Below, piece after piece: positions 21,056 through 58,812 of a stretch of 64,000 bases of DNA (position 1 is the stretch's first letter; every line of letters begins with the position of its first letter). The notes under the pieces are model-generated. The model did no database searches, was not told the DNA's origin, and saw only the letters and a program-made list of their open reading frames with translations. Both the position numbers and the translations under genes were made by a program. Source of the stretch: Scyliorhinus canicula (Eukaryota). The stretch covers positions 248,001 through 312,000 of the forward strand of contig NW_024055820.1 in the NCBI RefSeq assembly GCF_902713615.1. Direction: 5' to 3'.

Positions 21056-21957
21056 TCATCTTTTAATTGATTTTACAAACACTGCGATGGGATATTTCAC
21101 CACAAGCATCAACTGCTCTCTGAATCTCGTCTGCGTCACAGCATAAATACAAGTGTTTGTGCAGCAACTAAGGAGCTGCAGCATGAAGCCCATTTCCAGA
21201 ACAAAGTCAGGAAATCGTACAGATTCATATCCCAGAACCCACATTCGCCACCATATAGAGTAAACCATAAACATTGTCCATAAGAGCATGAAATTCGCCG
21301 AGATAACAAATAGCAAAATGATGGATTTCCTTCGGCTTTCCATCTCTGGGTCTCTCATACTCTCTCCACTGCTGTGATTCCGGAGTCTCCGCCGGGCTCT
21401 GCTGGACACTAATACGTGTCTGATGGTTAAACTGTTGAGAAACAATATCAGAATAAACGGGACACACGGGGTAACGATATTATGAAGAAATTCGATTGTG
21501 GCCCAGAATTGAGACTCCATAACACCGCTTCTCACCTCACAAAACCAAGGGAAATTGATAAGCCAATATCTTGGTGATAGCATGTAATACCAGAAAACAT
21601 TCTTTAAGCAACTCAGCACGGTCACTGTACCCAGGACAACAAGTGTGATTTTCACAGTGCAATATTTATCTTTCCATTTCTGGCAACAAATGGCTACAAA
21701 TCTATCAAACGTGAAACTGACAGTGAACCAGACCGAGCAGTCTGTGGTTGCATAAAGCACAACGGCGTGAATATTACACACATGAATGTCATACACAAAA
21801 GAAAACTGTTTCCAATAAAGAACAGGAATGTGCCTCAATATCAGGTCAATGATAACGACCAGTAGATCCGCTGCTGCCATGGCCACCAGATAGTAAGTGA
21901 CACATTTAGAGAGACCACATTTACCACGACACAGGATCACAATTGTTACCAAGTTAA
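21056..21957 (-). CDS. Exon 2 of a class A orphan GPCR (GPR139/GPR142-like, elasmobranch type)
   Basis: Open 7TM-type exon: NLVTIVILCRGKCGLSK..YLVAMAAADLL..TFDRFVAICC..FMLLW..SCCTNTCIY; acceptor ttccatacag|TT; with exon 1 it gives a 332-aa ORF. Confidence 0.9.
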
Positions 21958-23905
21958 CTGTATGGAAGAGAAAAAGAACAGAACATTACAAATCACGCAT
22001 TTTTATTCTTTCACAGGGTTTGGGCGCCGACGACTTATTCAGCATTAGTGTTCATCCCTAATTGCCCTTGTGAAGGTGGCGACGAATTACCTCATTGAAC
22101 TGTTACAGTCTCTGTGGTGTAATTACACCCAAAATGCTATTATCAATTCCACTGAGCAATTCCTAAAGTTTGTAAACGTGCAATTCGATGGAGTGATGAA
22201 TGGAAATTAACAGAACAATAATTGTCTTCTTTTCGCTGACACTGCGGCATACAATTTTCTCAAAACAGCCGTAAAACAGAAATGATCTTTTGGGATAAAA
22301 TACCAAATTGTTGGCTTTCTGCTTTCTCAAACAGCTATCAATTGGATTGCTTATTGAAATTAAAATTAAGAAAACTCATTATTTTGTAACTGGGTGTGAT
22401 ACCTAATGTCAGCTGATTACACACATTTTCTATCGGAACGTTTCGAGATTGCTAATGGTATGGATACATTTCGCTGAAATCTAGAAACCATTTCAATGAA
22501 AGTAACAAAGTTCACGTAGTTTTTAAAACATCCAGGGGCTTGGAAATTTGCAACGAGTAACTCAGCTCTTGACGCTCAAAGCCTGTCCACTGACAACAAG
22601 GCACATGTCAGAAATGGGATTGCATACTCCCCAATAACCTCGATGATTGCAGCTCCAACATCACTGAAGAAACTTTACACCACCAGGTCAAAGCTGCACG
22701 CTTGATTGGCACCCCTTCATAAGCACCCATTCACTCCAGCACCGCCGCATACTAGCAGCAGTGTGTACCATCTCCAGCATACTCTGCACGACTCACCAAG
22801 GCTCCTGTGGCAGCAGCTTTCAAACCCACGGCTACGACCATCTAGAAAGTCAACGGCAACAGATATGTGGGAACACGGCCACCTGAAGGTTCCCCTTCAA
22901 GTCACTCACCATCTTGACTTGCAAATGTATTTCAGTTCCTTCACTGTAGCTGGGTCAAAGTCCTGGAACTCCCTCCCTAATCGCAGAGTGAGAATACCTG
23001 CATCACGTGCACTGCAGCGTTTCAAGAAGCAGCTCAACACGAGATTCTGATGGACAATTAGAGATGGGCAACACATACTGGCCTAGTCAGCGAAGCCTCA
23101 CATCCAATAAAAATAATTTTGAAACTTCATGAGTTTCCTAACTTGGAGACTCAGGCAGAATGCCAAAGTTCTCTATAAATCATATAATGGCATGCTAACC
23201 AGATACAAGCATTCAGTGAGGAAGACACAAAACATTTAAGCACTAAAATAATTGGGAGATCCCTTCAGCAGCTGCCAGGAAATTCAATTATTTCAAATAA
23301 CACTTGGAAGTACGTAAATTGAAAAGTCAAAGAAAAATAATCCACTTAACTGTGGGTGATAATTCAAGATTATTACAACATTAAAACATATAGAAAAATG
23401 AATCGCGATTTGAGTTTGAAGGTTGAAAAAGGAATTTGCGATGTGTCATACTGAACCATACAGCTATTAGAGCGTGATTTTCCAACAACTACATGTAATC
23501 TATTAGCCCGGAGTGTTTTCTCAAATTCGGGACACATATTTATATTTATCCAAATAGAGTTCCGATTTCTAAATGGTTGACGCTCCAAGCATACTTTAAT
23601 CTAAAACCGAAAAACATGTAGCAGTAAGAACGTACCATTCATTGTTCTCATTTCAACAAATTGTTTCCAGAGCAATAATTAAACAAACGGCAATTGATAC
23701 AAAGGGAAACCAGTGCGAAAAATGGCAGCAGTGTATAGATCGACTTCTTAAAAAAGCCGAGAACAGCAATGATGTGATAGATTATACATGGAATTGATAG
23801 TTGTACCTGCGAGAAACACGAATCAATAAGGAGATAATAATCGTCAAAAATATTAATAGAGTTAAGCATAGCTTATCGAATTAATAGCTGAATAGAGAGA
23901 CTCAC

Positions 23906-28713: not shown

Positions 28714-29667
28714 TGTTGCACGTTTTGCTATGAGTGTAAAACGCGTTTATTGGGGTGTATTAACTTCCAAGTGCTTAACACCACTAGGCTCTGTCTTATG
28801 TATTTTTCAGCTTAGGAGTCGCCAGTTGCCATATAGACAACTCACATATATTCCAAGGTCAAGTTCAAAGTAATAAAACGATACACCGATTAGTAAGTTC
28901 CAAACGATCAGTATTTATTATACAATTATAATAAATACGCATACACACACTAAGGGACTAAGCTATGACTAGACTAAGCAAACAGAATACTTATCTAACA
29001 GGAACAGGCAAGGTCAGGGAGCGAGGCCTTCGTCCCGGTCTTGGGCTGCAACCTTCAGAAAGCGTGCTGGTCACTGGGGGTCTAGCGGGCTTGGTTCACG
29101 TAGCGAGCGTCGTACTGGCACTTACGGTTCGGCGGCTGGTGCTCAACGGCTGGAGTCAGGATACAGCTTCAAGGTCTTGGTCAGGGCCGGAGCACGAAAC
29201 AACAGACAGGACCATGTGTGGGGGTCTATATTTAAAGGGGTCCTCAATGTCCTTCCCTCTTCTTGGGCGGACTTTACCTCTGGTTATCTATTGGGTCAAT
29301 TCCTCATCGATACTGTTTGAATTCCCCAATGCGAGGGGGTCTCCGTGATGGGGGGGGCGTTTCTTATGCCCTTTTGTTTGGAGGTTTCTGGTGCCTCGAT
29401 GTCTGGGCCTTGGTTCAAAATGTGTCCATTCAGAGTCAAATGTTTCTATTGTGTGGGTGTTCAGGTCTGATTGCCTCATTAGTATGCAAAGCGTTTTGCC
29501 ATTTGCACCTAACTAAGGTCTTCTCACCTGAGCCCAAACTGGTTTCTGCTACTTGCAGAATGCAAAATGCTCTCTTTGCAGACTGCTGTTTTGGCCAAAC
29601 TGCCTTTTTCCCTGCAGTCTTAGCGCTTGCTTACTTTGCAGCTCAGCGTCCATTTTAGGTGGCTACA
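28714..29667 (-). repeat. 3' LTR (954 bp)
   Basis: TGTAGCC..TGCAACA; about a dozen substitutions and 2 single-base indels versus the 5' LTR by eye; AATAAA at 28746-28751. Confidence 0.95.
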
Positions 29668-29800
29668 TTCCCTCCTTGTGATCCTCACAATCAAAATATT
29701 GTGAAGGATCACCTATGTACGTTGCCTTGAGTGCATCTGGGTTGCCTTCTTTGTGTTCCCTGACCTCGGCAAGCTCCTGAGCGTCTACTCTGTCCTTAAA
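29663..29800 (-). CDS. Putative spliced terminal exon of an accessory protein (45 codons, no ATG at its start)
   Basis: Acceptor aattttcttcccatag|TTT AAG GAC..; FKDRVDAQELAEVREHKEGNPDALKATYIGDPSQYFDCEDHKEGM*; the stop falls within the first LTR bases. Confidence 0.35.
   Translation of the reverse strand, partial: FKDRVDAQELAEVREHKEGNPDALKATYIGDPSQYFDCEDHKEGM
29668..29677 (-). promoter_or_regulatory. Polypurine tract
   Basis: AAGGAGGGAA directly abutting the 3' LTR on the sense strand. Confidence 0.8.
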
Positions 29801-30038: not shown

Positions 30039-30380
30039 TTATTCATCATGGGGCAAAGGGGATTGATGAAATCGGAAAATAGGAGATCGAACTCCATAGA
30101 CGGAGGGGCAGGAACGGGAGGCTCTCCTCTTCCACTTCCTCAACCTGAGGGTCTGTACAAGTATGGCGAGGATCGCAATCACTAGCAGTGATTCAATCAC
30201 GTATGACATGGAGTACCATGTCATAAATTTTGTGCACCAGGTCTGAACCTCACTGATCAGAGCTGAGCACTGGGGAGTTGCTGTAAGGGAAACATTTACG
30301 GTGGGGGTTGTGGGGGAAACGTGTCTTGCTTCCACACATACAAATATAACATGTAAAAGCAATAGGTGAGCTTTCATCAT
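30039..30380 (-). CDS. 113-aa type-I membrane microprotein in the env position
   Basis: Signal peptide MMKAHLLLLHVIFVCVEA, N-glycosylation sequon NVS, TM YVIESLLVIAILAILVQTL, basic RLRKWKRR; upstream acceptor gtccatacag| at 30411/30410 followed by a GAAGAA-rich stretch. Confidence 0.65.
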   Translation of the reverse strand: MMKAHLLLLHVIFVCVEARHVSPTTPTVNVSLTATPQCSALISEVQTWCTKFMTWYSMSYVIESLLVIAILAILVQTLRLRKWKRRASRSCPSVYGVRSPIFRFHQSPLPHDE

Positions 30381-31373
30381 CTTCAACTTGTTCTTCCTTC
30401 TTTCTTCCTCCTGTATGGACAATCCTTGCTTCGATCCCTGTCTCGTCCTTCGAAAGCTATGGGATCAAGCACAGTATCTGTCAATACACAGTTTAAGATC
30501 TTTACCTGTTAGTGCATCTGTCTTTTAAATTCCAATTGACCCTTTAAAAATGACTGGCCAAGTCACACCCTGTGACTCCCCTCATTTTTTTTTTTTCAAA
30601 AGCGAATTTGAAGACCAGAATACACCTAACAATCCTTCTCCTGCGAGCCGTCTCGCAGGCTTAGCTAGTTTACCATCCGAATGTTCCCGGATGTAAATAG
30701 CATGTGGGATGGCGGCCTAAGGGCTGCCTAACGAAAAATGAAAACAAAATTTTGAAAGAAACGTCCGAATGAGTTGCGTATGGGCCGCGACGGGTACGAG
30801 TTGGATGGGATCCCCGGGTAGGGCGTGCTGTGCCATACCCGAGCTTGGCTGACCAAAGTGGGTTCTCAGACAGGGCGGGTCCTCAGTGCCGTTTGTCCAC
30901 TGCCTGAGTAACCTGGAGTAAACGGGTAAAAATGTGGTCACCGTGACTTGCAGCCTCTATTCGCCGAATAGAGGGGCACCTAAAAACAAGGGAGCCAAGA
31001 TGCTCCTTCATCTGAAAACAGGGAACAAGTCGTGAACCATGTCGGTTCACCAGAGGATACAACTGAAGTCCTCAGAGGTTTCGGCAGAGAAACTAAAGTG
31101 CGTGTAAGGTGGTCACAAGCCTTACAACTTGAAAAGATCTCCAATCAAACGGGTTTGGGAACTGAAGTTCTCAAAGGTATCGGCGGACAAGCTAACGTGT
31201 GTGTGAGGTGGTCACAATCTTTTCAGCTGAAAAGAAGATGTCCATCCTCCAGCTGAACCATTTACAGTACTGAGACAAAACAAACATAAAACGAAGACAA
31301 ACAAACGTGCAGGTTCCATCAGAAAGGACATCGTTTCCCTCAAACGATTCCTATTTTACATCATCTGGACACC

Positions 31374-33143
31374 TCACTTTTCCTCTGTCTCTGTGAACAG
31401 GGTCACAAAGGGGTTGCCGTATCGGGATTCAGACACCGTGTCGTCCTGCTCTCCCGGATCCCACACCCTTGTGTGGATCAGGCATGATATCTTGGAATTG
31501 TGTGACCGGGGGTCACTTTCATCGTTGCGGACAAGTCGGTACGAATTGTCCCTGTGCCATAGTGTTGGGTCCAAAAGTGAATGGGTATTGTCGGGGTCGT
31601 CGGGGTCGGGTGGTGGGTCTGGGTTTTTAATGTAAGTGACTTCCATGGGGTCACTGTAGTCGGGGTCATAGTCGCTGCTATGTGGGCTGTAGTGTGGTGT
31701 GCTGTGGCTGTCCTCAGAGTCAGTGTCTGCATCGCTGTCTCTGCCGCGGCAGCTTGTGGGCGTTTCGGGGCGTGGTCTGTTGTGGTCGGTGGGCGGAGTC
31801 GTAGGCGAGTCCGATGAAGAACTGGTCTGTGAGGGGGATGGTGGAAACGTGTCTCTCGTGGGTGGGGGAAGGTGTTCTGCTGCATCTAGCAGGACATGGT
31901 GTGCATGGTTGGCCTGTGTTCCATATGCCTTTAACTGGTTGATATGGAACCACGCGGTCTTACCATTAGGATATTTTATCCTATAAACTGAGGGGCTAAT
32001 TTTATCCGAAATTGAGTATGGGCCGGAATATTTTGGAGCCAAAAAACTGCTGGGGTTGTAAACAGATAACATTACCTGTTGCCCAACCTGGAATTCTGTG
32101 GGGTGTACGGTCTTATTAAAACAAGCTGTGCGTTGTTTACGGCGTTTCCCTCGCTGAACTGCGGCTGCAATCTGTGCAGACCTCACAGTCTCAACCAAGT
32201 CTTTAACCGTCTTTTCGTGTGTGAGGGCCGTCACTTCGGGGCTGGTCATGTCCAGTCCTAAAAGGAATTCTGTACCTTTCATAGGGCGTCCGGTCATGAG
32301 TGTGTGTGGTGTGTATCCTGTGGAAGTGGAAACAGTGTTCCTTATGAACATGAGTGCAAATGGGAGCACTGAATCCCATGTCGAATTGTTCTCCTGTACC
32401 ATTTTCCTAAGGGTAGTTTTTAGGGTCCGATTCATGCGCTCCACAATCCCGCTGGACTGTGGATGATACGCAATGTGGAAATTTTGTTTTATGCCGAATA
32501 TTGTCAGGACGTTCTTCATGACCCGTCCTGTGAAGTGAGATCCCTGGTCCGAATCAATACTTCGGGGTAAACCCCATCTCGTGAAGATGTGGTGGGTCAG
32601 GATCTTTGCAGCTGTCTTAGCTGTATTTGTTCTAGAGGGGAAGGCCTCTACCCATTTGGTAAAGGTATCGATGACCACCAGAACGTATTTATAGCCATTC
32701 CTACAAGGGGGCAATGGTCCTATAAAATCGATCTGGAGGTTTGTCCAGGGGCCGTTAACTGGTCGAGTATGCCGAAGTTGTGCCTTTTTAGAATACCTCT
32801 CCGGGTTATTCTGAGCACAAATAAGGCAATTCTCAATATAATGCGTTACATCAGTCCTGAGATTAGGCCACCAACAGAGCTGCCTGAGGTGCCTCGTGGT
32901 TGCATCAATTCCCTGGTGCCCGTGGTTATCATGAAATAAAGCAATCATTGCATTCCTGTCCTGCTGCGGGACCACATAAAGTTGTTCCTTTATGATCACA
33001 CCCTCATGTGTGGTCAGTGCGTGTTTAAATCTCTCGTACTCTGGCACAAAGTTGCCTTTGAAAACCTCCCTGAGATCCTCATCCTGCTTCTGTGCTGCTA
33101 CAAGATCTTTAATATCTGTCTGTGAGATTTGGACTGCGCTCAC
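31374..33143 (-). CDS. pol: Integrase region of pol with a long S/P/D-rich C-terminal tail
   Basis: HHCC (FHDNHGH..CLIC), D-D-E core (QIDFIG, SDQG, ERMN), GPY/F motif (KYSGPY). Confidence 0.92.
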   Translation of the reverse strand: MSAVQISQTDIKDLVAAQKQDEDLREVFKGNFVPEYERFKHALTTHEGVIIKEQLYVVPQQDRNAMIALFHDNHGHQGIDATTRHLRQLCWWPNLRTDVTHYIENCLICAQNNPERYSKKAQLRHTRPVNGPWTNLQIDFIGPLPPCRNGYKYVLVVIDTFTKWVEAFPSRTNTAKTAAKILTHHIFTRWGLPRSIDSDQGSHFTGRVMKNVLTIFGIKQNFHIAYHPQSSGIVERMNRTLKTTLRKMVQENNSTWDSVLPFALMFIRNTVSTSTGYTPHTLMTGRPMKGTEFLLGLDMTSPEVTALTHEKTVKDLVETVRSAQIAAAVQRGKRRKQRTACFNKTVHPTEFQVGQQVMLSVYNPSSFLAPKYSGPYSISDKISPSVYRIKYPNGKTAWFHINQLKAYGTQANHAHHVLLDAAEHLPPPTRDTFPPSPSQTSSSSDSPTTPPTDHNRPRPETPTSCRGRDSDADTDSEDSHSTPHYSPHSSDYDPDYSDPMEVTYIKNPDPPPDPDDPDNTHSLLDPTLWHRDNSYRLVRNDESDPRSHNSKISCLIHTRVWDPGEQDDTVSESRYGNPFVTLFTETEEK

Positions 33144-33912
33144 AGGGGCGCTAGCTGGTGCGCTAGCTGGGGGGGTCCATAAGTGTCCTCGCCTGGAACC
33201 TGCCTTAGCCAGTGCGTCGGCTTTTACATTCCCAGGGGGGGGATGACCTATGGTGACTTCTTACCTTTATTATTCCGAAGGTCCTGTCCTTCGCTTTTTC
33301 TAAAATATGCTGGAGTAGAGGGGCTGATGGAAGGGGTTTCCCGTCTGCGGAGACAAAACCTCGTGTCCTCTACAGGGGCAGAAAATCGGTTAAACTGTTA
33401 CAGACATATAAGCTGTCTGAATATATGTCTGCTGGGCTGGGGAAAGAATCGGGGTGGTCCACTATATACGCTATGGCCGCGAGCTCTGCTGCCTGCGCAC
33501 CTAAGTGTCCAGGTAGTTTTAAAGCTATCTCTTCGAGAGCGCGCCCCTGCGCGTCCTCTACATAGATGCCGCATCCTGTGATACGCTCACCTTCTAAAAC
33601 TGTGGATGAACCGTCTACGTAAATCCTCAGTGGTCCACACGTGTCGGTGGGTTGGGGACTTTGTCTTGGGTTCCCTATCTTCCTGGGGGGTGTCTTTGCT
33701 ATAAAGGGTCCTGTGTTATGTAGGGGGGCTACAATTTCACATTCATGGGGCTGTCCTGGGTATTGGAGGTTGTCGGCTAAAAATGTGTGTGTGCGGGTCC
33801 GTTTTACTGTAATGTCCCGTCCTTGTAAAAGTAGTGTCCACCTCGCTGCCCTAATCTGGCTAACTGAACCGTCCTTCAGTCGACCGTCTAGGAGTAACTG
33901 TGTGGGGGTGTG
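33144..33912 (-). pseudogene. pol: End of the tether domain plus a retroviral-type RNase H of pol (1 nonsense codon, 1 frameshift)
   Basis: HTPTQLLLDGRL..RWTLLLQG..IYVDGS..AQAAELAAI..IYSDSLYV..L*R(33372-33370)..KVRSH..GNVKADALAK; extra C in the homopolymer at 33235-33242. Confidence 0.88.
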
Positions 33913-35610
33913 CTAGGTCAAAATGGTGGTGGGGTTGAGTCCGGTAATGTATGAGAAGTATTGTACTGCCCAGAAGACAGCAAGGAGGTGCCTCTCACAG
34001 GCAGAGAATCCTTGTTCTACCGGGTCTAACAGTCGGGAGGCATAAGCCACTGGTCTTAGCTGCTCGTGCCGTTCCTGAAGCAACATGGCCGAGAGGGTCA
34101 GATCGGTGCTCGCTACCTCTATTGCATAGGGGGAAAGTTGGTCTGGGACTAGCAGCGCGGGTGCTGCGCTAAGGGCTTTCTTTAACTCCTCCACAGCCTC
34201 TGTATGCTGCGGAAGCCATTCCCAGGGGGCTCCTTTCTTAAGGAGGTCTGAGAGTGGGGCGGCTTTTGTCGCGAATCCGTCGATGTGGTTCCGACAATAG
34301 CCAACCAGTCCTAAAAACGACCGGAGGGCCGAAACATTTTGGAGAAGGGGCAATTTGACAATCGAATCAATTCTTTTGAATTCGATCTCGCGTTTGCCGT
34401 GTGTGATGACTGTTCCCAAATACATCACTTTATTTTCCAAAATCTGGGCCTTTCTTGGGTTAACTTTACATCCAATTGAAGTCAACAGTTCCAGGAGTTC
34501 GGCCAGAAGCGTAACGTGCTCTGCCTTTGTGTCTGTCTGCAGTAGTAGGTCGTCTACATACTGTACCAGACATTCGGGGCGGGAGAATTTCTCTAAACCA
34601 CTTGCCAGCTGTCGGTGGAAAATGGAGGGGGAATTGTGGAATCCTTGTGGGAGGCATGTCCACGTATACTGCTGTGATTTGAAGGTGAAGGCAAATTTGT
34701 ACTGGCACGCTTTTGCCAATGGTATTGACCAGAATCCGTTACTGATGTCCAATACCGTGAAGTATTTGGAGTTGAGTCCCTGCTTGAGCATGGTCTCGGG
34801 ACTAGTAGCTACCGTTGGGGCTACTGCGGGGGTTACTTTGTTGAGTTCCCGATAATCGATGGTCAGACGCCATGATCCATCGGGCTTCCTCACTGGCCAA
34901 ATAGGGGCATTATTGGTCGAGGCTACCGTTCTGAGCACACCTTGCTCCAATAAGCTTCCTATCACCTTTTCTATTTCCACCTCTGCTTCCAGGGGAAATC
35001 TATACTGTTTCTGTGGTCGGGGGTCCTGTCCGGTAACGTGAACTGGTCCAGTCATTCTGCCACAGTCATGACGGTGACTGGCAAATGCTGTCCTGTGTTT
35101 GTTCAGTAGGGCTTTTATTTGTCTGTCGGTGTGGAGTGTAGTCAGGTCAAATGAGTACTCTCCCACTGCGCTAATCCGATTAGCGTAGTCTCCTACTGTG
35201 AGCGTGGCGGGTGCTCTGTCTGATCTAGCCATTCGCCAGACACACTGGTTCACTGGGTCGAATGACAAGCTATGAGCGTTCATAAAATCTATCCCCAGGA
35301 TGTGTTCTGCTGTCCGGGGAAGATTTACTAAAACTACGGGGTGTCTTGTGGAAATGTTCCCTAGCTGGATTGCTACGGGTGCCGTAATGTGTCCCTGCTG
35401 CGAGTGTCCTGTGAACCCGCTAAGTGTAATGGTGGATGTGGTCGGCCACGTGTCTGCGTGTGCCGTGGTCGTAGAGTTAATGGTGGTGCGGGACCCTCCT
35501 GTGTCCCAAAGTAACTCTATGGGCTTCCCTTTTACTCTCGCTGTGACTACGGGTCTCCCTGATGGATCCCATAGTGTGTCACAGACCCAAGTGGGGGAGC
35601 CCGAACACCG
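33913..35610 (-). CDS. pol: Protease, RT and degenerate RNase H (tether) of pol; ends at a premature TAG (likely GAG>TAG)
   Basis: LLWDTGGS (aspartic protease), LDISNGFW, LPQGFHNSP, YVDD; tether IEVAS..RPVAYASR..ERHLLAV..; in frame with gag across a single TGA. Confidence 0.92.
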   Translation of the reverse strand, partial: RCSGSPTWVCDTLWDPSGRPVVTARVKGKPIELLWDTGGSRTTINSTTTAHADTWPTTSTITLSGFTGHSQQGHITAPVAIQLGNISTRHPVVLVNLPRTAEHILGIDFMNAHSLSFDPVNQCVWRMARSDRAPATLTVGDYANRISAVGEYSFDLTTLHTDRQIKALLNKHRTAFASHRHDCGRMTGPVHVTGQDPRPQKQYRFPLEAEVEIEKVIGSLLEQGVLRTVASTNNAPIWPVRKPDGSWRLTIDYRELNKVTPAVAPTVATSPETMLKQGLNSKYFTVLDISNGFWSIPLAKACQYKFAFTFKSQQYTWTCLPQGFHNSPSIFHRQLASGLEKFSRPECLVQYVDDLLLQTDTKAEHVTLLAELLELLTSIGCKVNPRKAQILENKVMYLGTVITHGKREIEFKRIDSIVKLPLLQNVSALRSFLGLVGYCRNHIDGFATKAAPLSDLLKKGAPWEWLPQHTEAVEELKKALSAAPALLVPDQLSPYAIEVASTDLTLSAMLLQERHEQLRPVAYASRLLDPVEQGFSACERHLLAVFWAVQYFSYITGLNPTTILT

Positions 35611-37359
35611 TCAGTTCGTCTCGTCCACATTGGTGGGTCCTGACTGTACTGCTATATTGTGGATGGGTTTTGCCTTACTGCGGTTCAGAGTGCCTGTCTG
35701 CTGGCCTCTCTGAGATCGCTGGGGTGCATTGCATTCCTTTGCCCAATGCCCTAACTGTCCACAGTTATAGCATTCCTGTCCTTTCTGCTGTGGGCTGCTC
35801 TTCCCTTCATTTACCCATGCGGGTTTCTGGTGCTCTCTCACTGCCTGAATATCTGCTGCAGCCTGAGCCTCTTCTGGGGATTGAACCTTACTCTTTCCCT
35901 GAATTGATTGCTCCCAAGCGCGGGACAACCTTTTCAGGACCCATTTCTCATTATGGGCCTCTTCTGAGGGGTCATAACTGTTGCAAGCGCTCTGTCCTGC
36001 CTCTGTCGCGTGTGAGATTATGGTGCGCGTCCATTTGACCATATTTTCACGGTTCAAATGCGCTCTATTTAAATCGCCGAAAACTGCGTTGAAATGAATC
36101 CACAGCCTTCCTGCGAATGCTGTGGGGTGTTCGGATCTTTTCTGCCGGCACTTATTAAGTCCTTCTACGGGGTCACCTCGATTATACCCTATGGCATCTA
36201 AAATGGAGGTGTGCATCTCCTCTAGGGTGCCTCCGGCAACGTTCTGTGGGTCGGGGAGGGCTGCTACCACGGACTGGTCTAAGCTCAGCACTGTGAGTTT
36301 GACCTGCTCTCTCTCGTCCAGGCCGTACATGGTAGCCTGCTGTTTTACCTTAGCGAAAAATTGGTGGGGGTCTGCGGTGGGGAGAAACGGAGTGATCTTC
36401 TCACATGCGTCCCTGAGCTGGGTTACAGTTAAGGGGGTGGTGTAGGTTATATCTGGTGCGCCTTCTGTTGTAGCTTTTCTCTGCGTGGTTACGGGATTCA
36501 TGGGTGCGGTTATGATCTGATCTGTAGGGGGTTGGGGTGCTTGCCTTTTCTGCTGCGCTGCTGGCGCACATGTTCCCTGAACATAACGCTGCGCTGTCTC
36601 ACTTAATTCTTGCCAATCTGGGGCATTTTCTCCATCTAGCTGTGTTCCAAAGGTGCTTTGAAACCCATTTTGCACCGAAAGCAGCGATTGCAGCTCTGCA
36701 ATCTGTTTCCTGCATTTCGCGTGGTCTACTGTACTTTGCCTTTGTTCTGTGGTTGCAGCATGGAGTGCTCTCAAAGCTGCTTTAAGGTCAGAGCATTGCC
36801 TCTGCAAAGCCTCTACCTGCTTGTCAGATTCTTCTCTTATCAGGACGGCACGTTGCACGTCCTGATAAGCCTTTTCGTACTGGGTCTTGGAACTGCTGAG
36901 ATGGGCTAGACAAGACTGATGTGCCCTCTTGGCATCATCCACCTCTCTACCTTTCTCTGCCAACTTCCCTCTTAGATCCATATTTTCCTTTTCAATGTCC
37001 CTGACATCGACCTTACTCATTCGGTTCCTTTCTTCTAATTCTGCCCGGAGCGTCCTGACGACCTCCTCTGTGCCTCGCAATTGTGCCAAACAGGACACAA
37101 TCGCCATCGCCTTACGTGCTTTACTCATGTTCTTTTTATGAATTTGAGAGAGGTTCTCCCACCAAGTATGACCTATACTTCCGGGACCTGTCTCCTCATT
37201 TGAACAAAACTCTTTCCAAAGGGGCCATCCCTTTCCTTGCAGATACTTGCGGAGTTCCAGCTCCCACGTGGGACACTGACCTACCCTGCTACTGCTGCTG
37301 GTCGCTGCGACCACAAACCTTTCTGGATCCATCAGACGTTCCATTGCCTGCATGGCCAT
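35611..37359 (-). CDS. gag: Gag (582 aa) with coiled-coil N-terminal half and one CCHC knuckle
   Basis: Intact ORF; CYNCGQLGHWAKEC; ends TGA CGG. Confidence 0.9.
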   Translation of the reverse strand: MAMQAMERLMDPERFVVAATSSSSRVGQCPTWELELRKYLQGKGWPLWKEFCSNEETGPGSIGHTWWENLSQIHKKNMSKARKAMAIVSCLAQLRGTEEVVRTLRAELEERNRMSKVDVRDIEKENMDLRGKLAEKGREVDDAKRAHQSCLAHLSSSKTQYEKAYQDVQRAVLIREESDKQVEALQRQCSDLKAALRALHAATTEQRQSTVDHAKCRKQIAELQSLLSVQNGFQSTFGTQLDGENAPDWQELSETAQRYVQGTCAPAAQQKRQAPQPPTDQIITAPMNPVTTQRKATTEGAPDITYTTPLTVTQLRDACEKITPFLPTADPHQFFAKVKQQATMYGLDEREQVKLTVLSLDQSVVAALPDPQNVAGGTLEEMHTSILDAIGYNRGDPVEGLNKCRQKRSEHPTAFAGRLWIHFNAVFGDLNRAHLNRENMVKWTRTIISHATEAGQSACNSYDPSEEAHNEKWVLKRLSRAWEQSIQGKSKVQSPEEAQAAADIQAVREHQKPAWVNEGKSSPQQKGQECYNCGQLGHWAKECNAPQRSQRGQQTGTLNRSKAKPIHNIAVQSGPTNVDETN

Positions 37360-37671
37360 TTCCTCTGACTCTCTTTTAGTTAATTTGGAACAGGGGGTTG
37401 CTGGGGTTGTGTTTCAAGAAACGGGTACGGCTTACGCTATGTTCCGTTCACAAAACTACCGAAAGTTTGTCGCAACAAAAAAAAAATGCTTTCAGTTTTA
37501 CCTTGCAGCCCTGTTAGTACGCATGCACTAAACACACTTCCGAATTACGCTTATTAGTTTGAACACCTTGAATACTTGTGATTTTCTTTACTTTCTTACT
37601 TTCTCTGTAATTTGGAGTTCTAATTCAAATTTCAGGGTCCTGGACGGTGTGGGGTTTCCACTTACAACCGT

Positions 37672-37689
37672 GTCCCGGCGGAGTCGCCG
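37672..37689 (-). promoter_or_regulatory. Primer-binding site complementary to tRNA-Arg(TCT)
   Basis: CGGCGACTCCGCCGGGAC versus the expected TGGCGACTCCGCCGGGAC (17/18), 5 nt from the 5' LTR; candidate major splice donor AAG|GTAAAA at 37502/37501. Confidence 0.8.
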
Positions 37690-37694
37690 CTAAA

Positions 37695-38650
37695 TGTTGC
37701 ACGTTTTGCTATGAGTGTAAAACGCATTTATTGGGGTGTATTAACTTCCAAGTGCTTAACACCACTAGGCTCTGTCTTATGTATTTTTCAGCTTAGGAGT
37801 CGCCAGTTGCCATATAGACAACTCACATATATTCCAAGGTCAAGTTCAAAGTAATAAAACGATACACCGATTAGTAAGTTCCAAACGATCAGTTTTTATT
37901 ATAAAATTATAATAAATACGCATACACACACTAAGGGACAAAGCTATGACTAGACTAAGCAAACAGAATACTTATCTAACAGGAACAGGCAAGGTCAGGG
38001 AGCGAGGCCTTTGTCCCGGTCTTGGGCTGCAACCTTCAGAAAGCGTGCTGGTCACTGGGGGTCTAGCGGGCTTGGTTCGCGTAGCGAGCGTCGTACTGGC
38101 ACTTACGATTCGGCGGCTGGAGCTCAACGGCTGGAGTCAGGATACAGCTTCAAGGTCTTGGTCAGGGCCGGAGCACGAAACAACAGACAGGACCATGTGT
38201 GGGGGGTCTATATTTATAGGGGTCCCCAATGTCCTTCCCTCTTCTTGGGCGGGCTTTACCTCTGGTTATCTATTGGGTCAATTCCTCATCGATACTGTTT
38301 GAATTCCCCAATGCGAGGGGGTCTCCGTGATGGGGGGGGCGTTTCTTATGCCCTTTTGTTTGGAGGTTTCTGGTGCCTCGATGTCTGGGCCTTGGTTCAA
38401 AATGTGTCCATTCAGAGTCAAATGTTTCTATTGTGTGGGTGTTCAGGTCTGATTGCCTCATTAGTATGCAAAGCGTTTTGCCATTTGCACCTAACTAAGG
38501 TCTTCTCACCTGAGCCCAAACTGGTTTCTGCTACTTGCAGAATGCAAAATGCTCTCTTTGCAGACTGCTGTTTTGGCCAAACTGCCTTTTTCCCTGCAGT
38601 CTTAGCGCTTGGCTTACTTTGCAGCTCAGCGTCCATTTTAGGTGGCTACA
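37695..38650 (-). repeat. 5' LTR (956 bp)
   Basis: TG..CA termini; TATAAATA at 38218-38211 (TTTAAATA in the 3' LTR). Confidence 0.95.
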
Positions 38651-44249: not shown

Positions 44250-46946
44250 CACGGCCAACTATGCGTCACCCAAACATGGCGAATTGTATGTCTATCAGGT
44301 ATGGCCGACTGCACGTCGCACACACATGGCAGACTGTACATCACAGAAACATGGCAGACTGTACATCACACAAACATGGCAGACAGTATATCACACAAAT
44401 CTGGCTGACTGTACATCACACAAAAATGGGAGGCTGTACATCACATAAACCTGGCTGACTGTACATCACACAAACATGGCCGACTACATCACACAAACAT
44501 GGCAGAGTGTACATCACACAAACATGGCAGACTACATCACACAAACATGGCAGACAGTATATCATACAAACATGGTAGACTGTACATCACAAAAACATGG
44601 CAGACAGTATATCACACAAACATGATAGACTGTACATCACACAAACATGGCTGACTCTACATCACACAAACATGGCAGACTGTACATCACACAAACATGG
44701 CAGACTACATCACACAAACATGGCAGACAGTATATCATACAAACATGGCTGACTCTACATCACACAAACATGGCAGACTGTACATCACACAAACATGCCA
44801 GACTGTGCATCACAGAAACGTGTTAGACTGTACATCACACAAACATGGCAGACTGTACATCACACAAACATGGCAGACTGTACATCACACAAACATGGCA
44901 GACAGTATAATCACACAAACATGGCAGACTGTACATCACACAAACATGGCAGACAGTATAATCACACAAACATAGCAGACTGTACATCACACAAACGTGG
45001 CAGACTGTACATCACACAAACATGGCAGACTGTATATCACACAAACCTGGCTGACTGCACATCACACAAAAATGGGAGGCTGTACATCACATAAACCTGG
45101 CTGACTGTACATCACACAAACATGGCAGACTACATCACACAAACATGGCAGACTGAACATCACACAAACATGGCAGACTACATCACACAAACATGGCAGA
45201 CAGTATATCATACAAACATGGTAGCCTGTACATCACACAAACATGGCTGACTCTACATCACACAAACATGGCAGACTGTACATCACACAAACATGGCAGA
45301 CTGTACATCACACAAACGTGGCAGACTGTATATCACACAAACGTGGCACACTGCACATCACACAAACATGGCAGACTGTACATCACACAAACATGGCAGA
45401 CTGTACATCACACATACATGGCAGACTGTACATCATACAAGCATGGCAGACAGTATAATCACACAAAAATGGAAGACTGTACATCACAGAAACGTGTTAT
45501 ACTGTACATCACACAAACGTGGCAGACTCTACATCACACAAACATGGCAGACTGTACATCACACAAACATGGCAGACTACATCACACAAACATGGCAGAC
45601 AGTATATCATACAAACATGGCTGACTCTACATCACACAAACATGGCAGACTGTACATCACACAAACATGCCAGACTGTGCATCACAGAAACGTGTTAGAC
45701 TGTACATCACACAAACATGGCAGACTGTACATCACACAAACATGGCAGACTGTACATCACACAAACATGGCAGACAGTATAATCACACAAACATGGCAGA
45801 CTGTACATCACACAAACATGGCAGACAGTATAATCACACAAACATAGCAGACTGTACATCACACAAACGTGGCAGACTGTACATCACACAAACATGGCAG
45901 ACTGTATATCACACAAATCTGGCTGACTGCACATCACACAAAAATGGGAGGCTGTACATCACATAAACCTGGCTGACTGTACATCACACAAACATGGCAG
46001 ACTACATCACACAAACATGGCAGACTGAACATCACACAAACATGGCAGACTACGTCACACAAACATGGCAGACAGTATATCATACAAACATGGTAGCCTG
46101 TACATCACACAAACATGGCTGACTCTACATCACACAAACATGGCAGACTGTACATCACACAAACATGGCAGACTGCACATCACACAAACGTGGCAGACTG
46201 TATATCACACAAACGTGGCACACTGCACATCACACAAACATGGCAGACTGTACATCACACAAACATGGCAGACTGTACATCACACATACATGGCAGACTG
46301 TACATCATACAAGCATGGCAGACAGTATAATCACACAAAAATGGAAGACTGTACATCACAGAAACGTGTTATACTGTACATCACACAAACGTGGCAGACT
46401 GTACATCGCACAAACATGGCAGACTGTACATCACACAAACATGGCAGACTGTACATCACACAAACATGGCAGACAGTATAATCACACAAACATGGCAGAC
46501 TGTACATCACACAAACATGGCTGACTGTACATCACACAAACGTGGCAGACTGTACATCACAGAAACGTGTTATACTGTACATCACACAAACGTGGCAGAC
46601 TGTACATCACACAAACATGGCAGACCGTACATCACACAAATATGTCAGACTGTACATCACACAAATGTGGCAGACTGTACATCACACAAACATGTCAGAC
46701 TGTACATCACACAAATGTGGCAGACTGTACATCACACAAACATGTCAGACTGTACATCACACAAATGTGGCAGATTGTACATCACACAAACATGTCAGAC
46801 TGTACATCACACAAACATGTCAGACTGTACATCACACAAATGCGGCAGACTGTACATCACACATAAATGGCAGACTGTACATCACAGAAACGTTTTAGAC
46901 TGTTCGTCACACAAAGATGGCAGACTGTACGTCGCACAAACATGGT
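44250..46946. repeat. Satellite of 25-bp monomers (CATCACACAAACATGGCAGACTGTA; 23- and 27-bp variants) with higher-order blocks
   Basis: Direct tandem monomers; the diagnostic variant CAAAAATGGGAGG recurs at 44421, 45067 and 45939 (646, 872 nt). Confidence 0.97.
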
Positions 46947-54827: not shown

Positions 54828-56551
54828 GCCGCTGCTTTCTGGGTCACAGCTGCTGTCTGTTTGGGGCTGACACGTGAATCCTTTCCTGTGCGCGGAGACC
54901 GCGAGCACAATCCACAGAAACAATTTTAATATAGTTCACATCGAATATAGATTCCGCCCAATTAATGCAGTAACACTGGGAGGGCAGAATTGGCTGGCGT
55001 TTATTTCGGTATATCAGTGAACTTGACACTGTCATTGAGAATGCAAAAACCAGCCGGTGGCCTGGGGAACTACTTAAATCGCCGAATCACAATGAACCCG
55101 TGGAAAATACACACATCATTATTGGTTTACAATTTCATTATGTATCAGATGATGGACCCAGGTGAGAAAAACCCTAATAATTTTAATAGTCTGACTGAGC
55201 ACTTCGCAATATTAATATCTCTTAAAGCTAAGAATCTAGAGCGTAAACAAGTTCTTTGAGTTTATTTTCAGGGCATGATTTGATCTTATGATCAATGTAT
55301 AATTGAGGAAAGACATGCCTGCTGGGTTCCAAGCATTGGAACAAATGGTCAGGAACTGACTGAATACAGAAGCTTGTTTGCGAAGTCAATCAGAAAGATT
55401 GCTGTAGTGAGTTACAACCCCTGAAAAGGACTGCACAAAGGCTAGAATAGAGCGACTAAAACTTAATGGATACGACACACATCTCAGAATGTGAATAATG
55501 CGAGTTTCAGGCAGTCAAGAAATATCAAGGACACTTTCAAGGATGGAATTCACGGCCGAGGGCCAGATGTGATGTTTCGTCATCCTTGCAAGTGCCAGAG
55601 AAAGACTGGGATGTTCATTTCAGCTGAAGACATCTTTTAGATCGAAGTTGCTCCCACTGCCAACCTGTACGCGCTGATCAAACATTATGTATTAGGGCAA
55701 TCTGAATGGTTTGCTGCGCTTTGTCATGCACTAAATGTAACTACTGAATTACCACAACCGCTTTCCCTTCAAAATGTATTGTAAATGAAACTCGAAAACA
55801 ATAATTCCCTGTACTGAATAAAATATTGGTGGAAGAACCTCTAACACCAGATCCCAGATCTCTATCAGCAAATCCCAGGAACCACGATTCAGCGACTGCC
55901 TGGAAGTTCCAATCTTTGCCCGTATTCTGCAGGGCACACATGGAATCAGCCAATAACTGCCAAACTAATGTTCCTGGAGGGAACTACAATCATGCTGCCC
56001 TAGGCCTTGTGAAAGAATCTCTGTGATTTCAAATCTTCCAGCGCTCCTGGAACCTACTTGGATTGTTCAGCTTATTTTTCTTTGTCACATTCGAAAGCGC
56101 ACAGATAAAATAAATACTGGTTTCGCTGATTTCAATAAATGTTAATACCCATTTTGTCAACAATGTTACAATCAAGTTTGAGTTGATATCCATTCAGATC
56201 ACAAAACCGATATTTTACGGAAGTACATTTCACATTTCAATCAGTCTCAGTTATTACCCCACTAATCTCTGTTTGTGTTATATTAGAGCCTGATTCATAC
56301 TGTCTTATACTCACAGAACACATGACCTGCACAGAGTTTCATAGGTGGACAATCATACCTGCTAGTGAATGATCGCCGAATAAGTTACTGAACTTAATCA
56401 TTTCCATGCTTGTATCATGACAAATCCCATCTCTGCTTATATTGCACTGTACAATCCTCATGAATTACTGGACAACGCTCGGCCTGTGTTAATATTACTC
56501 TGGGCTCTGTATTTGCTCCCACTACACAAGACAGTGTCACTGTTTATTGTC

Positions 56552-58812
56552 ATGATGTGGAGATGCCGGCGTTGGACTGGGGTGACCCCTCCGGAAGGCC
56601 GCTGCCCTAGACTCGACATGTATGCTCAAGCCGTCAGAAGTCGTGTCAATGCCAGATTCATCACTCGCAATCACAAGGCAGCCTCAAACGTCACCCAAGC
56701 ACAACGCAACGCCATCCGCACTCTCAAGACCAACCGCAACATCGTCATCAAACCAGCAGACAAAGGAGGGGCCACCGTCATACTGAACAGAACAGACTAC
56801 TGCAAAGAAGTATACCGACAACTCGACAACCAGGAACACTACAGGCAGTTACCCGCAGATCCAACCAAGGAACACATCCGCCAACTCAGCAGACTGATCA
56901 AGACCTTAGATCCAGACCTTCAGAACACCCTACGTGCTCTCATCCCACGTAATCCCCGCATTGGAGATCTCTACTGCCTCCCGAAAATACACAAGGCCAA
57001 CACACCAGGCCGTCCTATCGTTTCAGGCAATGGGACCCTGTGTGAGAACCTCTCTGGCCACATCGAGGGCATCTTGAAACCCATCGTACAAGGTACACCC
57101 AGCTTCTGTCGCGACACGACGGACTTCCTACAGAAACTCAGCACCCATGGACCAGTTGAACCAGGAACATTCCTCGTCACAATGGATGTCTCGGCACTCT
57201 ACACCAGCATCCCCCATGACGACGGCATTGCTGCAACAGCCTCAGTCCTCAACACCGACAACTGCCAATCTCCAGACGCAATTCTGCAACTCATCCGTTT
57301 CATTCTAGACCACAACGTCTTCACCTTCGACAACAAATTCTTCATCCAGACGCACGAAACAGCCATGGGGACCAAATTTGCACCTCAATATGCTAACATC
57401 TTCATGCACAAGTTTGAACAGGACTTCCTCACCACACAGGACTTTCAACCGATGCTATACACCAGATACATCGATGACATTTTTTTCCTTTGGACCCACG
57501 GCGAGACATCACTGAAACGACTACACGATGACATCAATAAGTTCCATCCCACCATCAAACTCACCATGGACTATTCTCCAAATTCAGTTCCATTCTTGGA
57601 CACACTCGTCTCCATCAAGGACGGTCACCTCAGCACCTCGCTTTACCGCAAGCCCACAGATAATCTCACGATGCTCCACTTCTCCAGCTTTCACCCGAAA
57701 CACATTAAAGAAGCCATCCCCTATGGACAAGCCCTCCGTATACACAGGATCTGCTCAGACAAGGAGGAGCGCAACAGACACCTACAGATGCTGAAAGATG
57801 CCCTCGTACGAACGGGATATGGCGCTCGACTCATTGATTGACAGTTCCACCGCGCCACAGCAAAAAACCGCACCGACCTCCTCAGAAGACAAACACGGGA
57901 CACCACTGACAGAGTACCCTTCGTCGTCCAGTACTTTCCTGGGGCGGAGAAACTACGACATCTTCTTCGCAGCCTCCAACACATCATCAGCGAGGATGGA
58001 CATCTTGCCAAGGTCATCCCCACACCCCCACTACTGGCCTTCAAACAACCACGCAACCTCAAACAAACCATTGTTTGCAGCAAATTACCCAGCCTTCAGA
58101 ACAGCAACCACAACACCACAAAACCCTGCCAGGGTAATCTCTGCAAGACATGCCAGATCATCGACATGGACACCACCATTACACGTGGAAACACCACCCA
58201 CCAGGTACGCGGCGCATACTCGTGCGACTCGACCAATGTAGTCTACCTCATACGCTGCAGGAAAGGATGTCCCGAAGCGTGGTACATTGGCGAAACCATG
58301 CAGACACTGCGACAACGAATAAACGGGCATCGTGCGACTATCAACAGGCAGGACTGTTCCCTTCCAGTTGGGGAACACTTCAGCAGTCAAGGACATTCAG
58401 CCTCTGATCTCCGGGTCAGCATTCTACAAGGAGGCCTTCAGGAGACGCGACAACGCAAAATTGCTGAGCAAAAACTTATAGCTAAGTTCCGCACGCATGA
58501 ATGCGGACTCAACCGGGATCTGGGATTCATGTCGCATTACATTCGGCCCCCACCAACAAGCCTGGACTTGCAGAGGCCTACCAACTGAACTGGCTTGGGA
58601 CAATTCACACCTCTTTAACCTGGAGTTACCTCTCTCTCTGCATCTTTGATGATTTGATTGCCTGCAGGTGCTCGCATTCCGGGGCATCTCTGACTGTGTC
58701 TATATAAACATTTCTGGAACAAGCCTTTCCATTCACCTGAAGAAGGAGCCGTGCTCCGAAAGCTCGTGTTTGAAACAAACCTGTTGGACTTTAACCTGGT
58801 GTTGTAAGACTT
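56552..58812 (+). mobile_element. Penelope-like retroelement, 5'-truncated (RT plus GIY-YIG endonuclease plus pLTR), one nonsense codon
   Basis: DKGG..RPIVS..MDVSALYT..AMG..YIDDIF; TGA at 57839-57841, then in-frame continuation to CxxxxCxxC and VYLIRC..YIGET (58166-58588); pLTR at the 3' end. Confidence 0.92.
58734..58768 (+). ncRNA. Minimal type-I hammerhead-like motif in the Penelope pLTR
   Basis: CAC-CTGAAGA-A-GGAGC-CGT-GCTCC-GAAA-GCTC-GTG; palindromic AGCT stem III; CAC/GTG stem I. Confidence 0.6.

Follow-up and report, generated by a model that had tools for sequence, protein, structure and literature searches.

A membrane microprotein under purifying selection occupies the env position of a catshark endogenous retrovirus

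The window analysed here, a stretch of 64,000 nucleotides from Scyliorhinus canicula (contig NW_024055820.1, positions 248,001 to 312,000), harbours on its minus strand an LTR endogenous retrovirus (ERV) of about 9.9 kb; all features of the element given below are on that strand, in window coordinates. The 5' LTR (37695..38650), of 956 bp and bounded by TG...CA, and the 3' LTR (28714..29667) are 98.6% identical over 958 alignment columns. No clear target-site duplication was seen for the window copy, and its flanks differ. The primer-binding site (37672..37689) is complementary to tRNA-Arg(TCT), with the first base mismatched in the window copy; a tRNA-Arg(tct) gene of the host (L141:1431-1521) pairs with it, and the match is full in four further copies of the element. 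A candidate leader splice donor, placed at 37502 by the first-pass annotation, lies at 37497..37508. The gag frame (35611..37413) is rich in coiled coils, has one CCHC knuckle and does not start with Met-Gly. Its stop codon, TGA (window 35611-35613), is in frame with pol and directly followed by CGG, a context that is leaky for read-through, and gag-pol would be expressed by read-through of this stop. The pol region (31374..35610) has the layout PR-RT-tether-RNase H-IN: protease and RT are followed by two RNase H domains, the first of the tether type, and integrase comes last. In the window copy pol is split by lesions into three frames.

Between the integrase stop (31374) and the polypurine tract (PPT, 29668..29679) that precedes the 3' LTR (29679/29667) lies the subject of this work, an open reading frame (ORF) of 113 aa plus stop (30380-30039), present as described earlier. 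It is preceded by a non-coding segment found conserved in the family alignment (30560..30945) and by a conserved splice acceptor (30457..30466), identified from an alignment and from chimeric gene models, whose AG at 30458-30457 opens the ORF exon at 30456. The purine-rich stretch noted earlier upstream of the ORF is indeed present as the leader of this exon (30381..30456); it contains no ATG between acceptor and start, and it carries a family-restricted AG at 30412-30411. Directly past the integrase stop, two direct repeats of 74 nt lie 99 bp apart (31061-31233), and the length of this stretch varies among transcripts. Elsewhere in the window are a 309-codon open frame matching rhodopsin-family 7TM receptors (Pfam 7tm_1; 21056-21985, minus strand, about 6.7 kb past the 3' LTR), a tandem array of about 106 copies of a 25-bp unit (44301-46945), and a Penelope-like element with RT and a weak GIY-YIG match in two consecutive frames (56384-58588, plus strand).

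As for its lineage, the element likely belongs to the clade of snakehead retrovirus (SnRV), as judged from the RT comparison and the tRNA-Arg primer site rather than from a tree. SnRV has a tRNA-Arg primer and a Gag of the coiled-coil type, and our literature search found no paper on tRNA-Arg priming by SnRV. The RT scores 205-210 bits against foamy/MLV enzymes and 126 against Ty3. Among the rows of the PMC7947760 supplement compared here it is closest to SnRV, with about 80 of 141 positions shared as compared with about 56 for the lokiretrovirus row, an affinity established by hand comparison of printed alignment rows and not by a tree. In an integrase quick tree of 65 rows, rooted at midpoint and without SnRV, the window copy falls within a 32-row vertebrate retroviral clade (99) with no resolution of sub-clades; among named integrases, that of Scyliorhinus torazame comes closest (81%). 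The placement is no firmer than likely because the RT was compared by hand and the integrase tree does not resolve the sub-clade. SnRV itself, when sought among viral contigs, yielded two loci at 27-31% only. The elephant shark is reported to hold an SnRV-related lineage (PMC4977317).

The first-pass annotation had attributed to the ORF product a signal peptide, a Thr/Pro-rich ectodomain with a sequon, one transmembrane (TM) helix, a basic patch and a tail with Tyr and Pro, and we recognise each of these in the sequence. Residues 1-18 (30327..30380) form a predicted signal peptide, a hydrophobic N-terminal segment of variable sequence whose cleavage was judged by hydropathy and a small-x-small pattern; a clear h-region is found in 74 of 80 distinct proteins of the family. 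Residues 19-46 (30243..30326) make up a Thr/Pro/Ser stalk with an invariant N-glycosylation sequon (N29, S31), and residues 47-58 (30207..30242) an aromatic amphipathic juxtamembrane helix in which W48, C49, F52 and W55 are invariant. Of the two Cys residues claimed for the ectodomain, both are present in the window protein, but C49 alone is invariant, the second being found in 40 of the 80 proteins. The TM helix (residues 59-78, 30147..30206) contains the invariant Glu63, and its hydropathy peaks at 2.18 (KD-19, residues 58-76); the hydrophobic moments flanking it in the window protein are 0.59 and 0.59. Residues 79-113 and the stop (30039..30146) correspond to a basic amphipathic patch and a conserved cytoplasmic tail.

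All 80 distinct proteins have the sequon, the Glu in the TM and the polybasic patch, with at least three K/R within 15 aa past the TM; a YxxPhi sorting motif is found in the tail of 8 of them, and none starts with a Met-Gly myristoylation signal. Across 40 representatives the invariant positions are N29, S31, W48, C49, F52, W55, E63, L66, A69, K82, W83, R85, R86, P100 and F102, the invariance of the Cys, of Trp55 and of tail positions being partly built in by the ORF filter. The predicted structure comprises a helix at 2-19, a disordered stalk, a single helix at 38-90 and a short tail helix, with a mean pLDDT of 70.8 (about 50 in the stalk, about 94 in the TM) and a pTM of 0.35. From the signal peptide, the sequon and the positive-inside rule, the protein would be oriented N-out. 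The predicted product is a type I membrane glycoprotein: a signal peptide is followed by a glycosylated stalk of about 28 aa and by an aromatic amphipathic helix that would lie on the outer leaflet, and the TM, in which a Glu is buried, leads into a basic tail.

How the ORF is expressed was addressed through its acceptor and through RNA reads. A conserved acceptor does precede the ORF, as proposed before, but at 30457/30456 and not at 30410: with a loose pattern, the AG at 30458-30457 is found in 87 of 92 open-ORF loci and the 30410 motif in 43 of 92. The alignment of 20 loci supports the former, and the host-chimeric models P0081 and P0080, both automated and traced here to the DNA, depart from the genomic translation at the same AG. 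Among the 15 joints listed, of 16 in three raw RNA runs and one contig set, none linked 37502 to 30410, the joint previously suggested, and none entered at 30456. This absence carries little weight because the reads were partial (1-34% of each run), the copies divergent (most reads being 90-95% like the window copy) and the coverage of the purine-rich leader thin (depth 6-13). In two oligo-dT runs, the depth over the ORF is 34 and 55 on the strand expected to be sense, assuming a stranded library, versus 0.1 and 2.4 on the opposite one. The corresponding values for pol are about 4-11 and 21-49, and the segment between pol and the ORF is deeper still. The microprotein probably arises from a spliced mRNA that joins at 30456.

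The depth maximum falls within the conserved segment 30560-30945, which is about 75-80% conserved across families, better in DNA than the microprotein ORF itself. Several hairpins are retained in the segment, which also has a strong polypyrimidine-AG at 30728, an A/G-rich tract and a site resembling a splice donor at 30679-30668; its folding has a z of -1.66, with 6 of 100 shuffles equally good, and it has no match in Rfam. The segment might serve in export or packaging, act as an IRES or be a mini-exon. In ten annotated Scyliorhinus proteins the microprotein ORF, whole or in part, follows an unrelated N-terminus; seven of the ten bear a host-gene name or domain. In S. torazame, the isoform models P0083 and P0086-P0091, which belong to HEPACAM2-like, KIAA1958, a gene with a galectin domain, SUGCT, B3GAT1-like and CFAP36, terminate in the ORF. 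Such chimeric isoforms, if produced, would gain a TM tail for host proteins via the acceptor of the element.

At least six families have, in the same slot past pol and ahead of the 3' LTR, a gene of 112-119 aa with 43-91% identity to the window protein (both ranges taken from 40 aligned representatives). Among 30 loci chosen by their integrase 3' end, a set that contains the window copy and tandem duplicates, all 30 have the ORF in this slot, full-length and open in 25, broken in 4 and truncated by the locus edge in 1. Sixteen of 20 regions reached via diverged integrase have the ORF (11 open), and the other four belong to an older lineage without it; further searches added families B to F. 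Disruption of the ORF in most copies, a possibility raised beforehand, is not what we found, as the majority are open. The distance from the end of integrase to the ORF start is 758-1059 bp (81 loci measured) and that from the ORF stop to the PPT 258-695 bp (75 measured), of 92 distinct open-ORF loci, so that the slot leaves no space for env. A longer env is absent from every locus read, and the full env gene expected of an SnRV-clade retrovirus is missing in the catshark element.

Of the 6321 first-look candidates of a protein search, 150 were scored and none contains a stop, a set that is skewed toward intact copies and is no measure of copy number. The pol frames reach 1408-1415 codons in 38 of 79 rows. 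With its high LTR identity (98.6%) and long pol frames, the family is young and partly coding-competent. A second catshark species also has the ORF family. The element forms head-to-tail arrays, with a spacing of 8969 bp, in two places (G000:C12 near 82.92-82.94 Mb and 78.94-78.96 Mb; L032, L033, L038-L041). An older degraded lineage (L061-L064), whose integrase is about 40-45% like that of the window, has neither the microprotein ORF nor a detectable env. In separate ERV families (L166-L195) the env is of the conventional type, and several of these have an env frame that is open over about 560 codons.

It had been pointed out that the ORF stayed open while pol acquired stops. This is true of the window copy, but openness in one copy is no evidence: with about three lesions over 4.2 kb of pol, simple arithmetic indicates that a 342-bp ORF is spared about 80% of the time by chance. 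The evidence for a real gene therefore comes from the comparison of the family. The dN/dS check suggested at the outset gave values far below 1, indicating purifying selection and not neutrality. Among nine representatives, dN/dS is 0.18-0.47 in 36/36 pairs, with dS of 0.18-1.93; in a codon bootstrap, dN equalled or exceeded dS in 0/500 replicates for 34 pairs and in 1/500 and 11/500 for the remaining two. Nei-Gojobori dN/dS values between natural copies are 0.21 within A1, 0.19 for A1-A2, 0.22 for A1-B, 0.36 for A2-B and 0.54 among copies of B. Along the protein, the pN/pS values are 0.69 for the signal peptide, 0.59 for the stalk, 0.22 for the juxtamembrane helix, 0.30 for the TM, 0.23 for the basic patch and 0.33 for the tail. 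Shifted sense frames give 0.77-3.99, as against 0.24-0.57 for the true frame, and one antisense frame echoes the signal, as shared third positions predict. Frame-breaking indels relative to the window copy amount to 0.41/kb in the ORF versus 9.9 and 10.8/kb in its flanks (44 of 45 loci aligned), counts that share ancestry and are not independent.

By these comparative measures the gene is real, under frame-specific purifying selection over deep divergence. A chance ORF or a passive relic would accord with there being no spliced mRNA seen among the reads, but the restriction of purifying selection to the true frame, the indel pattern and the presence of the family in a second catshark species make this reading, barring alignment artefacts, extremely improbable. 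Since selection acted on replicating lineages, the protein serves the element. The data thus support an element-encoded type I membrane microprotein under selection, in the position of env.

Searches for relatives drew a blank beyond the catsharks. A word-indexed search of near-length proteins confirmed none of 18 candidates, and phmmer against 1.84 billion representatives gave five matches, four catshark gene models and one repetitive spurious protein. There was no match among PDB sequences, none of 25 pattern matches in viral contigs was confirmed, and Foldseek on BFVD, run with a low-information helical model, gave none at E<=0.001 (best 3.5). Sequence, profile and fold searches found no similarity to known accessory proteins. 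In the literature covered, largely outside subscription journals, we found neither an account of the microprotein nor one of an SnRV-like family that is env-less and encodes a small TM protein. The protein family is apparently undescribed and unannotated.

Its origin is a matter of conjecture. An Env whose middle was deleted in frame had been put forward, and a recent event of this kind is disfavoured, given that there is no long env and that the profile search was blank; no copy aligns to a long env. Trimming might instead have occurred before the families split, leaving the signal peptide, membrane-proximal region, TM and tail of an ancient Env. The env position, the dedicated acceptor and the order of an aromatic helix followed by a TM, which recalls env C-termini in the catshark genome, speak for such an origin. 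The microprotein, however, has neither an SU nor a furin site, lacks a fusion peptide and heptad repeats, and shows no sequence likeness to the TM subunit of an env; the family profile found nothing in 30 conventional env loci of the catshark genome and four loci of the older SnRV-like lineage (best iE 0.93). All nine matches of the profile among longer proteins are Scyliorhinus host-gene splice chimeras, with no long form, the length of the protein is constant across families, and the SnRV Env tail measures 136 aa (PMC12193657). We regard ancient trimming as rather unlikely, yet keep it in view.

Alternatively, the element may have captured a C-terminal membrane module from a TMEM156-like gene of the host. 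Thirty of 40 members match the Pfam family TMEM156 (PF15106) along the juxtamembrane, TM and basic stretch, with a best E of 5e-4, but every score is under the curated gathering cut-off (14 bits for the window protein vs 27) and the 30 members are related, hence not independent. In the genome, a profile search gave 45 sub-cut-off matches, and the 12 inspected comprised 11 element copies and no host gene. The sub-cut-off scores and the absence of a host gene among the inspected matches make this a weak lead, and we consider the capture very doubtful.

What the protein does for the element, beyond being a selected type I membrane protein, is interpretation. It is tempting to think that the microprotein takes over the membrane role of Env, at short range. 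Its cytoplasmic tail would collect non-myristoylated Gag capsids at the plasma membrane, its juxtamembrane helix and TM would destabilise or bridge membranes at cell-cell contacts, and capsids would enter the neighbouring cell directly, for instance from soma to germ cell, as proposed for sORF2 of Drosophila MDG1. This Env substitute, anchoring capsids and helping contact-dependent transfer, is the reading that we tentatively favour, at clearly less than even confidence. We do so because the peaks of constraint (outer helix, TM and basic tail) coincide with the modules of FAST and sORF2 proteins and the Gag has no myristoylation start, and because an outer juxtamembrane helix with a pN/pS of 0.22 would be of no evident use to an intracellular retrotransposon. 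The env-less slot, the young and partly competent family and the sense RNA argue in the same direction. There is a precedent in the env-less MDG1 elements, which encode sORF2 and pass from soma to oocyte (10.1101/2025.03.14.642691). For MDG1 itself, neither a need for sORF2 nor the fusion of cultured cells is proven.

Several observations weaken the transfer reading. None of the 80 proteins has a Met-Gly start, the signal peptide comes with a glycosylated stalk, which might keep two membranes from approaching closely, and a TM followed by a basic patch is a generic layout; in feature-level comparisons, M2, TMIE, TMEM52 and CoV E all reach an Atlas likeness of 0.83-0.87, to be taken as leads only. 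No spliced element mRNA was seen, and the open env frames of about 560 codons in other ERVs could supply entry in trans. Env-less ERVs can, moreover, amplify within germ cells without any transfer. The more specific proposal that this lineage swapped Env for an unrelated, signal-peptide-bearing micro-fusogen and spreads into the germ line by direct cell-to-cell transfer is a possibility that we find doubtful.

A related set of observations could be read in favour of an accessory or counter-defence protein with a Vpu- or adenovirus-E3-like logic. The TM Glu and the juxtamembrane helix would then engage a membrane protein of the host, which the tail would re-route, entry being provided by the Env of another ERV or not needed. 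The invariant charged TM residue and the conserved tail fit this idea, the signal peptide and sequon suit an ordinary secretory-pathway protein, helper-type env frames exist elsewhere in the genome, and the small accessory ORFs of SnRV come from subgenomic mRNAs (PMC12193657). Against it, YxxPhi motifs occur in 8/80 tails only, no likeness to known accessory proteins was found, and it is not evident to us why a germ-line-amplifying element would retain such a gene through a dS above 1.5. We deem it rather unlikely.

The tail is conserved as strongly as the TM, and this together with the lack of a myristoylation start in Gag could also indicate an internal assembly anchor, by which the tail would recruit Gag on ER or endosomal membranes in a cell-autonomous replication that requires no entry function. 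Because this would not account for the sequon being invariant or for constraint being strongest in the aromatic helix on the lumenal side, we find it quite improbable. The amphipathic helices on both sides of the TM are, for their part, compatible with a viroporin or a budding/scission factor similar to M2, whose oligomers would line a pore with the polar TM residue or whose helices would bend the membrane at release. In the Atlas, the named clusters closest to residues 40-105 are those of influenza M2, at 0.85-0.86 and below the 0.9 lead line. There is, however, no sequence or fold match, and the M2 gate depends on a TM His that the microprotein does not have. A signal peptide, predicted here, is not known from M2. 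This last function is decidedly improbable in our estimation.

The loss of env is commonly taken to mean that a retrovirus has turned to single-cell life. Here, an env-less and highly successful ERV radiation retains a selected surface-type membrane protein in two catshark species. If cell-to-cell transfer were confirmed, envelope-free infection would reach from insect retrotransposons to vertebrate retroviruses, with a new minimal fusogen. A micro-fusogen would be the Retroviridae counterpart of insect sORF2, of a new design made up of a glycosylated stalk, an aromatic helix and a TM, with no lipid anchor. If the protein were instead accessory, it would flag a host defence of sharks worth seeking. 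Either way, it represents an unannotated protein family, and through its acceptor alternative exons have entered the automated models of several host genes.

Among known systems, SnRV resembles the catshark element by the closest RT among the rows compared, dual RNase H, a tRNA-Arg primer and a coiled-coil Gag. Small ORFs are expressed from subgenomic mRNAs in SnRV, which in contrast has a full env with a 136-aa tail and ORFs of 52, 94, 76 and 205 aa (PMC12193657); the catshark element is env-less and has one 113-aa membrane ORF. Lokiretroviruses share the dual RNase H and the NYNRIN-like integrase annotation (PMC7947760). A first reading of the element as a lokiretrovirus, from such integrase labels, was dropped as its RT rows are nearer to SnRV; by hand comparison a loki-type RT is absent, and the slot has no space for a paramyxovirus-F-like env, the type found in that group. 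A PF00523 search of the genome gave no match, but neither did the control. The Chondrichthyes row of the lokiretrovirus survey reads 0/3 (PMC7947760). ERV-Spuma.0-Sca is likewise a class III-like ERV of the small-spotted catshark, but its LTR start and length (866 bp) differ and it has a 1.3-kb env CDS (PMC10699275); identity was rejected, and it forms a separate family. The TM region shows a weak likeness to influenza M2 at the level of features and to TMEM156 at the level of profiles, both below threshold and to be used as leads only.

The FAST proteins and sORF2 offer the most instructive parallel. They share with the microprotein a size range of 60-210 aa, a single TM, a predicted N-out orientation, a polybasic patch and amphipathic motifs on both sides of the TM. 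The N-terminal myristoylation motif of FAST and sORF2 proteins is missing from the catshark protein (0/80), and FAST TMs serve as reverse signal anchors (PMC7830690), whereas the catshark protein has a predicted signal peptide (h-region in 74/80) and a glycosylated stalk. MDG1 belongs to insect Metaviridae and not to vertebrate Retroviridae, and we found no sequence similarity between its sORF2 and the catshark protein, but it too is an env-less element encoding a protein of about 100 aa. The microprotein may thus act like FAST and sORF2 proteins without belonging to their family.
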